The notes under the pieces: generated by a model
Told to the model about the DNA's origin: nothing
Databases searched by the model: none
The model's input: only the letters and a program-made list of their open reading frames with translations
NCBI GenBank assembly: GCA_048885525.1
Contig: JBHLLP010000052.1
Location: forward strand, 1-23,649
DNA: 23,649 nucleotides
From: Candidatus Hermodarchaeota archaeon
Lineage (GTDB): Archaea; Asgardarchaeota; Lokiarchaeia; Sigyniarchaeales; SOKP01
Direction of reading: 5' to 3'
Translations under genes and position numbers: made by a program
Part shown: piece by piece, positions 7,453 to 8,892 of the stretch
How the letters are laid out: each line of letters begins with the position of its first letter
Position numbering within the stretch: position 1 is the stretch's first letter

Positions 7453-8124
7453 TTATAGAAGATTTGCAAAGATACTAAAACCACCAATCCATAAACAGAA
7501 ACCTTGGACAAAGCAAAAGATCATTATAATAAAGGCAATAGGGGGCCAAGATAGAAATTTTGATACTTTCTGAAGTGTTCCAATATAAAATTTAGCGGTA
7601 AGACCCACTAAAATCGTTACAATGATAAATATTATTACAATAGCCCATTTTACTACCTTTGTTCCTATTAAATTCGTAACAGAATCCGGAATTATTAATG
7701 CAATAATAAATGCTGTGGCAGTTCCTGCTAAAAGTCCTAAAATGCTAGAAAGGGGTAAATCTGAAATTGGCTTGAAGAACATGGCTATACCAATAATTAT
7801 TAAGAAAATAGATGTAAAATGGTTTGCTTCATCTGCCGTAACTGCTTCATATTTAAAACTTGGAGGTATATCCAATATCAAACTGACTACACCACTCCAA
7901 ATAACGAAAATCCCTAGAATTAATCCTACATATGATAATCCTCTAAGAAATTTTGTAACATTAAATTGCTCCTCCACTTTTTTTTTGGTGAATGAGCCTC
8001 TTCGCTTCCTTTCAAATCCTAACCAAGTTATTGCCATTGCTCCACTTAAAACCATCATTATTGCTGCTGATTCAGCAACCCAATCAAAAAAACCTCGGAT
8101 TACATCCCAATAGTCAAATAGCAA
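7453..8124 (-). CDS. Hypothetical multi-pass membrane protein
   Basis: 223 aa, about 6 TM segments, TTG start; probably co-transcribed with 7065-7343. Confidence 0.75.
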   Translation of the reverse strand: MLFDYWDVIRGFFDWVAESAAIMMVLSGAMAITWLGFERKRRGSFTKKKVEEQFNVTKFLRGLSYVGLILGIFVIWSGVVSLILDIPPSFKYEAVTADEANHFTSIFLIIIGIAMFFKPISDLPLSSILGLLAGTATAFIIALIIPDSVTNLIGTKVVKWAIVIIFIIVTILVGLTAKFYIGTLQKVSKFLSWPPIAFIIMIFCFVQGFCLWIGGFSIFANLL

Positions 8125-8241
8125 TTAAATCACTTTTATGAAAGATTTAAATTAATTAAAAGTTGGATTTTGATATTAAAAATTTAATGAAAATTTGGTT
8201 TAAAAAAATAATAAAAATGTATTAATTTCCTTAATTGCTTC

Positions 8242-8249
8242 TTTATATA
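8242..8249 (+). promoter_or_regulatory. Putative TATA box for small ORF 1 (probably a leaderless mRNA)
   Basis: TTTATATA ends about 27 nt upstream of ATG 8276, the usual archaeal TATA-to-start spacing. The AT-rich background lowers confidence. Confidence 0.4.
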
Positions 8250-8275
8250 AAAAACTCTTAATTGTAACCAAACTA

Positions 8276-8428
8276 ATGTCAGAATGGAAAAATAAATTAG
8301 ATAATGATATTAATGAATCCTATTACAATGAGATTCGCTGTACTGGATGAGGTATTATTGACGGTTTTATCACATTTATAAAAAATATAAAAAAACGACG
8401 TCAAAAAAAAAAAGTAAACAAAAATTAA
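8276..8428 (+). CDS. Candidate 50-aa selenopeptide 1 (in-frame TGA at 8348-8350, CxxU)
   Basis: MSEWKNKLDNDINESYYNEIRCTG-(TGA)-GIIDGFITFIKNIKKRRQKKKVNKN-TAA, followed directly by structured element 1. Confidence 0.55.
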
Positions 8429-8435
8429 ATTAAAA

Positions 8436-8502
8436 AATCTCAAGGAATAGATTATAAAATGTTAGGATCTAATCCTGTGAATTCCGTGTAGAATTCGAGA
8501 TT
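8436..8502 (+). ncRNA. Structured 3'-UTR element copy 1 (SECIS-like candidate)
   Basis: Outer stem AATCTC/GAGATT; hairpin AGGA-A-TAGATT [ATAAAATGTTAG] GATCTA-A-TCCT; second hairpin GAATTC[CGTGTA]GAATTC. Confidence 0.6.
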
Positions 8503-8662
8503 AAAATAAACAATTTTAATCGATTTTATTGTTAATTAAAATTAACATCAATTTTTTTATAAAAAATGCTTCCATATAATTGAGTTTTTATTTTTTATAA
8601 ACACTATTCTTTTATTATTTATTTCTCTTTGATGAATCAGTAAAATTAAAGGTTTTTAAACA

Positions 8663-8800
8663 ATGGAAGATCAAGAAGATCATTTGAACCTTGAGTTAGA
8701 TGATGATTGTTATAGTACCAGTTGAAATATGTTAACGATGTGGTACAGAAGAGCACAAAAAATCCAAAAAATGCGAGAAAAACAAAAACAAGAAAAATAA
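8663..8800 (+). CDS. Candidate 45-aa selenopeptide 2 (in-frame TGA at 8723-8725, CxxxxU)
   Basis: MEDQEDHLNLELDDDCYSTS-(TGA)-NMLTMWYRRAQKIQKMREKQKQEK-TAA, followed directly by structured element 2. Confidence 0.55.
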
Positions 8801-8807
8801 TCTAAGA

Positions 8808-8871
8808 ATCTCAAAGAATTAAATCGATAAATGCTAGGATTTAATTATAGGTTCTGCAAGAGCCTTGAGAT
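8808..8871 (+). ncRNA. Structured 3'-UTR element copy 2 (SECIS-like candidate)
   Basis: Outer stem ATCTCAA/TTGAGAT; perfect 9-bp hairpin AATTAAATC [GATAAATGCTAG] GATTTAATT; second hairpin GGTTCT[GCA]AGAGCC. Confidence 0.6.
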
Positions 8872-8892
8872 AAAAAATACAATTTTTAAATC

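Follow-up and report, generated by a model that had tools for sequence, protein, structure and literature searches.

The selenocysteine insertion sequence (SECIS) of Lokiarchaeia, the lokiSECIS, is defined by an AUGA, a 9-bp stem, an 11-nt loop and a closing GA or AA (PMC4989117), and its descriptions (PMC4989117, PMC11227280) cover the kink-turn arm only. One such element can be shared by the two genes of an HdrA-MvhD pair (PMC4989117). Homology to known families has yielded an Asgard selenoproteome of seven families, SelD, FrhA/VhuU, HdrA, FrhD/VhuD, Prx-like, AhpF-N-like and DsbA-like (PMC11227280), and a 2026 review counts eleven archaeal selenoprotein families (PMC13188914). Here we analyzed a 768-bp gap (8125-8892) between two minus-strand open reading frames (ORFs; 7453-8124 and 8893-10257) in a 23,649-nt stretch from the genome of a Loki-type Asgard archaeon, Candidatus Hermodarchaeota archaeon (assembly GCA_048885525.1, contig JBHLLP010000052.1), hereafter the window, which lies on contig C52 of the 3.58-Mb genome (29% G+C). 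It seems that this gap encodes two small, distantly paralogous selenoproteins, ORF1 and ORF2, with a SECIS-like RNA lacking the kink-turn behind each (E1 and E2, respectively); we put the probability of this reading at about 0.8. Our literature search found neither mini selenopeptides nor a kink-turn-less form of SECIS, and the two families are very probably both real and undescribed in the published selenoproteome lists.

An earlier interpretation made from the letters of the DNA (the sequence-only reading) had proposed that the apparently empty gap of about 770 bp holds two ORFs with an in-frame TGA, in the contexts C-T-G-U and C-Y-S-T-S-U, followed by 25 or 24 further codons and a TAA, and every detail of this description holds. 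Both mini-genes lie on the plus strand (Table 1). ORF1 translates as MSEWKNKLDNDINESYYNEIRCTGU-GIIDGFITFIKNIKKRRQKKKVNKN, in which the 25 codons after the TGA comprise an amphipathic stretch and a Lys/Arg tail. ORF2 translates as MEDQEDHLNLELDDDCYSTSU-NMLTMWYRRAQKIQKMREKQKQEK, and the 24 codons past its TGA include the basic amphipathic helix MLxMWYRRAQKLRKLRE.

Nineteen further genomes of the genus carry the 660-bp unit with both mini-genes, at 69-80% identity, and together with the window they gave 20 sequences for comparison that are not independent of one another. In the codon alignments, all 20 ORF1 and 19 of the 20 ORF2 sequences keep the TGA, the exception being a TGT that gives CYEINC. 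The ratio of nonsynonymous to synonymous substitution (dN/dS, Nei-Gojobori) is 0.26 before and 0.24 after the TGA of ORF1, and 0.10 before and 0.22 after that of ORF2. The two shifted sense frames gave 0.6-1.4, and the antisense frames gave 0.4-1.6 with 26 to 63 stop codons across the 20 sequences, so that codon-level conservation past the TGA stands out against all five other frames. On both sides of the TGA, the third positions are the most variable and synonymous swaps (AGA/CGA and TTA/CTN) are seen, while indels before the TGA are always whole codons. Residues W4, D29 and I32 of ORF1 and W27, Y28 and R30 of ORF2 are invariant. No Met occurs after the TGA of ORF1 in any of the 20 orthologues; therefore, re-initiation or a separate downstream ORF cannot explain the conserved tail. 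The suggestion that two frames kept open past a TGA argue against chance is thus well founded, and conservation of both ORFs beyond the TGA far exceeds what chance would give.

Six-frame profile searches with stops read through, covering 151 sampled genomes of the order, found ORF1 in 102 genomes, all from one family and spread over 10 genera, and every significant match carries exactly one TGA. ORF2 was found in 63 genomes, from four genera of the same family, with one TGA in 59 of them and none in the other four. No significant homologue in these searches has TAA or TAG at the site of the TGA. In a phylum-wide sample, ORF1 was present in 43 of the 54 genomes of its family; the 196 genomes outside the family gave a lone marginal match, which sits within a 575-aa frame and which we discounted. 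The profiles of ORF1 and ORF2 show a weak mutual alignment, with Sec (selenocysteine) on Sec (hhalign probability of 64%), which suggests that ORF1 and ORF2 may be old paralogues.

Interchange of Sec and Cys is present for ORF2, in genomes G022, G069, G104 and G080 and in one database protein (P0011). In G069, G104 and G080, ORF2 reads ...CYYTSCSLINMWH..., with Cys at the Sec site (CYYTSC). No element follows this Cys form, the sequence running directly into the convergent neighbor, and the neighboring ORF1 retains both its TGA and its element. Because these three genomes lack the element where ORF2 has Cys and keep it where ORF1 has TGA, the element is tied to UGA decoding. In two genera (g16 and g19), ORF1 and ORF2 are bicistronic: 27 to 33 nt separate them, ORF2 is preceded by a GAGGTG, and only one element is present, after ORF2. 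The closed genome G006 carries three ORF2 copies with element, at C1:189978-191487 and 2131804-2132445 (loci L086 and L033), two of which stand in tandem about 1 kb apart at a second locus, without ORF1.

The genome holds the genes for Sec synthesis and insertion that tiny selenoproteins would need. It encodes a tRNA-Sec (63.6 bits) directly beside SepSecS (385 bits) and a SelD gene that itself has an in-frame TGA (HGUSCKLG). A PSTK-like gene (155 bits) and a SelB-like GTPase gene (226 bits), both scoring below the strict curated cut-offs, lie near the tRNA-Sec. TGA terminates 13% of the long ORFs in the genome, indicating that the code is not reassigned. Taken with the frame conserved past the TGA and the Cys exchange in ORF2, these results uphold the proposal of tiny selenoproteins made by the sequence-only reading, as well as its view that gene callers overlook them: table 11 ends both ORFs at the TGA, and elsewhere such genes are missed or their UGA is translated as Trp. 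In public protein sets, all entries of the ORF2 family are unnamed hypothetical proteins that have either W or C at the site, and the W is an artefact of table-4 gene calling.

For comparison, we looked behind HdrA, three HdrA-MvhD operons and SelD in the same genome and found a canonical SECIS at each (Table 1). The core common to all five consists of AUGA, a stem of 9 bp and an A-rich loop of 11 nt with AG at its end, followed by GA or AA. Our own eSECIS descriptor was dropped, since it was too strict and missed even the SECIS of SelD. A covariance model built from three of these canonical elements (R1) recovered three more (30-55 bits), all behind unannotated mini-ORFs with a UGA, on contigs C35, C70 and C40. 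Every canonical SECIS of the genome sits in a three-way junction, in which a basal stem is joined by a small side hairpin; this hairpin has a UGYA-type loop and lies 3' of the kink-turn arm.

At C35:26520-26587 (locus L018:1501-1569 of G000, the genome studied here), an unannotated ORF of about 82 aa is immediately followed by a canonical SECIS of 54.8 bits. The ORF contains the motif GGGG-U-A-C and a single predicted membrane helix, and its end is a second TGA close ahead of the SECIS; it is a candidate small membrane selenoprotein. At C70:462-530 (L019), the SECIS (46.5 bits) follows by about 60 nt a hydrophobic mini-ORF of 61 aa with an in-frame TGA, MRVNEHLL...VLAUGNRITSF..., a candidate two-helix membrane selenopeptide. 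At C40:22980-23046 (L020), the SECIS (30.1 bits) stands behind a zinc-ribbon mini-ORF, MIFCLKCGN...CSTCGK...SFK-TGA-TAA, whose penultimate TGA may be a C-terminal Sec or simply the stop. The HdrA-like genes of the three operons (C5:21340.., C6:104729.. and, on the minus strand, C24:49474..) have the motif DDCSIU or DDCGIU and are followed within about 15 nt by an MvhD-like gene with two in-frame TGAs, one in CWKUGYG (CDKUGYS on C24) and one in (N/G)AUY or ISUKEGECE; each HdrA-MvhD pair has a single SECIS after its MvhD-like gene.

The sequence-only reading had placed a shared RNA element within 10 nt of each mini-gene stop, and E1 and E2 indeed begin 8 nt (at 8436) and 7 nt (at 8807) past the stops, or 86 and 82 nt after the respective TGAs. 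Both are about 66 nt long and fold into one and the same three-way junction, in which P1 is the basal stem, P2 a long arm capped by a 12-nt loop and P3 a short hairpin. In E1, P1 is AAUCUC/GAGAUU, P2 is a long stem with the loop AUAAAAUGUUAG, and P3 is GAAUUC/GAAUUC. In E2, P1 is AUCUCA/UGAGAU, P2 is a 9-bp stem formed by AAUUAAAUC and GAUUUAAUU with the loop GAUAAAUGCUAG, and P3 is AGGUUCU..AGAGCCU. Compared with shuffled sequences, their folding energies have z values of -3.8 and -2.7. Counted over the 20 orthologues on hand-specified structures, 94.3% of cells are paired in E1, with 7 pairs changed on both sides, and 93.6% in E2, with 6 such pairs, against 20-57% in slid controls. Over 65 element copies, 95.2% of cells are paired and compensatory changes occur in 19 of 21 pairs (slid controls, 22-60%). 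The 9-bp P2 is 96.7% paired in this set, its loop is 11 nt (17 copies) or 12 nt (48 copies) long, ends in AG in 64 of 65 copies, and has at least 3 A among its first 5 nt in 58 of 65.

Canonical and E elements were modeled separately because a joint MAFFT alignment misaligned them. The model built on E2 (R2) scores E2 at 87.8 bits and E1 at 50.4 bits, and these were its only accepted matches across the whole genome. Further R2 matches at C10:30280 (34.9 bits), on C39 and on C12 lie behind or inside ordinary genes and fold poorly, and a third copy of the loop motif (C1:101572), behind a transporter gene without a TGA, was judged to be chance. In the ten genera, R2 found exactly one element per UGA-bearing mini-ORF unit, at 35-96 bits, and none at canonical SECIS loci. 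Conversely, R1 gives the canonical elements 30-93 bits and E-type elements 9-24 bits; in the window its best match is E2 (15.4 bits), with E1 at 9.1 bits. At the mini-gene loci of relatives, R1 found no standard SECIS, its best weak matches (13-24 bits) being the E elements themselves. The eight canonical SECIS agree with E1 and E2 in their arrangement of P1, P2 and P3 and in both loops, AAAAUGYUAG on P2 and YGCAA on P3, and E1 and E2 have ordinary base pairs where the canonical elements have AUGA...GA. The element is thus conserved and kin to the Loki SECIS, but it is not a standard SECIS, because the AUGA/GA core is missing, and no described SECIS consensus accommodates it.

The stop codon UAG of ORF1 lies inside P2 in most relatives, which means that terminating ribosomes must melt the element. 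In 11 of the 20 genus members (loci L024-L042), ORF1 ends in ...NLKE-UAG and its last five codons form the 5' strands of P1 and P2, an overlap of about 15 nt between coding sequence and SECIS-like RNA. In the window, a length change in a poly-A tract gives ORF1 an earlier TAA.

According to the above-described analysis, we propose that the ribosome would read one internal UGA per mini-gene as Sec, at codon 25 (CTGU) and codon 21 (CYSTSU), and that the three-way-junction RNA right behind the stop would act as the insertion signal. The E-type element may descend from, or share ancestry with, the Loki-type SECIS; it would have retained the basal stem, the 9-bp stem, the A-rich loop of 11 to 12 nt ending in AG and the side hairpin with its YGCAA loop, with ordinary base pairs in place of the kink-turn (AUGA/GA). 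Should the element be a SECIS, it would have to be recognized through its loop and junction and not through a kink, and the Asgard Sec machinery would be reading the apical loop and the three-way junction instead of a G.A quartet. An Asgard origin of the eukaryotic SECIS has been argued from the kink-turn, which is also the presumed protein-binding site; an SBP2 homologue is not known from these archaea.

Several observations weigh against this proposal. The AUGA/GA core of the described Loki and eukaryote-like SECIS occurs in 0 of the 65 elements: the 5' flanks of the stem are most commonly CAAG, AAAG and CAAA and never AUGA, and the 3' flanks are UU, CU, UA and GU, with one GA and five AA, none of them in a copy that has a 5' UGA. 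The would-be G.A position in E1 covaries as a pair (GU/GC/AU/UA/CG), which indicates selection for a helix and not for a kink. Kink-turns in other registers (at the base of P3, or as a k-junction with P1 as C helix) and a GAA_A bulge were also considered, and no such feature is conserved across the genera. Rfam has no family that matches the element (window at the gathering threshold, gap at E values up to 10), and no Rfam SECIS matches in the gap even at E = 10. The figure of 95.2% pairing comes from an alignment of the 65 elements (A8) that was fitted to the model, and the relatives compared are not independent. For ORF1, no Cys homologue occurs among the 102 genomes that carry it. The Cys-form ORF2 of G022 (TGT) retains an element, with an altered P3 loop, and the three genomes that lack the element behind a Cys form are close kin and may represent a single event. 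Finally, what speaks for the proposed role of the peptides, discussed below, is the position of the motif together with helix models of moderate confidence. We hold it evenly balanced whether E1 and E2 are working SECIS without a kink-turn and so a second, dedicated class of Asgard Sec insertion signal.

The same features bear on programmed read-through of the UGA without selenium, in which the 3' structure would stimulate insertion of Trp, Cys or Arg by a near-cognate or suppressor tRNA. An element that lacks the kink-turn core of all known Loki SECIS and stands behind only these two genes in the genome would fit this reading, and table-4 gene calls do yield intact peptides with W at the site. 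However, the genome has complete Sec machinery and other Sec genes, and uses TGA as an ordinary stop elsewhere. The sole replacement of the UGA ever seen is Cys, the classic counterpart of Sec, the UGA stands in CxxU and CxxxxU contexts, and the element has its loop, stem length and side hairpin in common with true SECIS. We therefore regard read-through without selenium as unlikely.

The mini-genes might also be selenium-sensing leader ORFs, in which decoding of the UGA reports the supply of Sec-tRNA and regulates in cis or trans, the peptide itself being unimportant. The ORFs are very short, translation must melt the element where the ORF1 stop lies inside it, and the spacing of 27 to 33 nt before ORF2 in g16 and g19 would allow coupling. 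Purifying selection on the peptides nevertheless extends over their whole length, as the invariant residues of ORF1 (W4, D29 and I32) and ORF2 (W27, Y28 and R30) exemplify; no same-strand gene lies downstream, the next gene being convergent; and the Cys forms persist without any sensor codon. A leader function is accordingly quite improbable.

No Pfam or NCBIfam family matches either peptide, apart from one sub-threshold match to a Vps36 zinc finger (E = 0.02). AlphaFold2, run on 20-sequence alignments, predicted ORF1 as one long helix, with a predicted local distance difference test score (pLDDT) of 72, and ORF2 as a disordered acidic head and a helix at 20-44 with pLDDT of 80-92 (overall 68). 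In the latter model, the Sec is located at the first turn of the basic amphipathic helix. A hydrophobic stripe runs along both helices, formed by I27/I28, (F/V)31/I32, I35 and I38 in ORF1 and by M23/L24, W27/Y28, A31, L34 and L37 in ORF2, which fits pairing with a partner or a surface. Each peptide would thus begin with an acidic head, carry its Cys...Sec pair where a basic amphipathic helix starts, and finish in a Lys/Arg tail. Our most likely guess for the role, judged from these models, is a redox-active Cys-Sec pair (selenenylsulfide) or a shared Cys/Sec metal site, possibly formed by both peptides together. If E1 and E2 are working SECIS, the peptides they serve (45-57 residues) would be among the smallest known selenoproteins and may pair into a Cys2Sec2 redox or metal center.

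The small size, the acidic, leader-like N-terminus and the Cys/Sec in a short core would also suit precursors of a ribosomally made, post-translationally modified selenopeptide, and a radical S-adenosylmethionine (SAM) gene (12388-13512) is situated at a distance of about 3.5 kb. Next to the mini-genes, though, there is no maturase, protease or exporter, the conserved neighbor being a convergent UDP-glucose dehydrogenase, and conservation is strongest in the C-terminal helix and not in a short core, so a precursor role is very unlikely. Least credible of all is a UGA that is a true stop, leaving peptides of 24 and 20 residues or none and a structured non-coding RNA or separate tiny ORF behind it: termination of both ORFs at the TGA under table 11 and the in-frame ATG codons shortly after the ORF2 TGA would suit it, but the third-position bias and dN/dS of 0.22-0.24 past the TGA in the same frame as before, the lack of a Met after the ORF1 TGA, the indels before the TGA in multiples of three and the Cys forms that fuse both halves in one frame all contradict it.

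The features of the gap and the canonical SECIS are collected in Table 1. The TATA-like box of mini-gene 1 lies about 27 to 30 nt before its ATG, which suggests that the mRNA is probably leaderless or nearly so. When the 20 genomes are aligned, no non-coding block of the spacer is better conserved than the boxes upstream of mini-gene 2, whose Shine-Dalgarno-like site reads GGAGGT or GGTGAT in relatives. In the proposed reading, ORF1 and ORF2 would each stand on a transcription unit of their own. The neighbors of the mini-genes are an unknown 223-aa ORF and the UDP-glucose dehydrogenase; the latter is the conserved one and converges on the mini-genes, which are in an operon with no enzyme. Elsewhere in the window, a SAM-dependent methyltransferase gene (11732-12391, plus strand) overlaps by 4 nt the plus-strand gene of the radical-SAM protein mentioned above, and a 251-aa ORF on the minus strand (13980-14735) has a bactofilin domain (E = 3.7e-8), of the polymer-forming cytoskeletal family, in this Asgard genome. 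The sequencing runs listed as containing the stretch are DNA runs from sediment and soil only.

Table 1. Mini-genes, RNA elements and putative expression signals of the gap, with the canonical SECIS of the same genome
Feature	Position	Strand	Evidence
TATA-box-like putative promoter of mini-gene 1, TTTATATAAAAAAC	8242..8255	+	Sequence; block kept in 17/19 relatives' alignments
Mini-gene 1 (ORF1), 50 codons, predicted Sec codon 25, motif CTGU	8276..8428	+	Translation, 20 aligned orthologues
In-frame TGA of mini-gene 1, putatively read as Sec	8348..8350	+	TGA in 20/20 orthologues and in every significant match, 10 genera
E1, 3'-untranslated-region three-way-junction RNA, SECIS-like without kink-turn	8436..8502	+	Fold, covariation, model scores
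Putative promoter-like stretch before mini-gene 2 (TATA-like boxes TTTTTTTATAAAAAAT and TTTTTATAAAC)	8550..8604	+	Conservation
Putative Shine-Dalgarno-like AAAGGT, 9 nt before the mini-gene 2 ATG	8648..8653	+	Sequence and alignment
Mini-gene 2 (ORF2), 45 codons, predicted Sec codon 21, motif CYSTSU, acidic N-terminus	8663..8800	+	Translation, orthologues
In-frame TGA of mini-gene 2, putatively read as Sec	8723..8725	+	TGA in 19/20 orthologues, TGT (Cys) in 1/20
E2, 3'-untranslated-region three-way-junction RNA, SECIS-like without kink-turn	8807..8872	+	Fold, covariation, model scores
Canonical SECIS behind HdrA	C64:13421-13491		lokiSECIS core
Canonical SECIS behind HdrA-MvhD	C5:23508-23582		lokiSECIS core
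Canonical SECIS behind HdrA-MvhD	C6:106986-107052		lokiSECIS core
Canonical SECIS behind HdrA-MvhD	C24:2961-3031	-	lokiSECIS core
Canonical SECIS behind SelD	C16:21551-21625		lokiSECIS core

Among known systems, VhuU is a selenopeptide of about 25 residues in the [NiFeSe] hydrogenase of Methanococcus, with Sec and Cys as Ni ligands; it is the split C-terminus of the hydrogenase large subunit and is encoded with the hydrogenase genes. Like the mini-peptides it is a very small archaeal Sec polypeptide, and in VhuU Sec and Cys act together, but the hydrogenase motif and the hydrogenase neighbors are found neither in the translations of ORF1 and ORF2 nor in their surroundings. SelW, SelT and SelH, of the thioredoxin-like or Rdx type with CxxU, have a beta-alpha-beta fold and at least 85 residues. 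ORF1 resembles these Rdx-type proteins in the Cys before Sec in CxxU and in a Sec at or near a predicted helix start, whereas the models of both mini-peptides are single helices rather than a thioredoxin-like fold.

The mini-ORFs on C35, C70 and C40 are closer in layout: like ORF1 and ORF2 they are unannotated and contain a UGA (in frame or terminal), and their SECIS, like the SECIS-like E1 and E2, lies no more than tens of nucleotides away, but it has the AUGA/GA core and their peptide sequences are unrelated. Together with these mini-ORFs, the ORF1 and ORF2 families, present in about 100 genomes of one Lokiarchaeia family, indicate that searches starting from the SECIS or from the UGA would reveal a hidden layer of very small selenoproteins. 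The HdrA-VhuD/MvhD operons of Lokiarchaeia and Methanococcales parallel the bicistron of g16 and g19, as the UGAs of two adjacent cistrons are followed by one 3' SECIS. The operons, however, have a canonical SECIS, and their products are large iron-sulfur and flavin enzymes whose function is known, unlike peptides of 45-57 residues from no known family.

At the level of the RNA, the euryarchaeal SECIS, with its GAA_A bulge and three G-C pairs, differs from the E-type element, whose P2 is a continuous A+U-rich helix without a bulge. The closest relative is the lokiSECIS, or Asgard type I eSECIS-like element (PMC4989117, PMC11227280). Both stand directly 3' of a UGA ORF, with a 9-bp stem and an apical loop of 11 to 12 nt that is A-rich at the start and ends in AG; in both, one element can serve two cistrons, and in this genome both are embedded in a basal stem with a side hairpin. 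They part where the lokiSECIS has AUGA before the stem and GA or AA after it and E1 and E2 have a covarying Watson-Crick helix; moreover, the E-type element serves only the two mini-genes in the genome. Such a natural variant without the kink-turn, tied to UGA decoding, makes it testable which part of an archaeal SECIS the decoding machinery recognizes.

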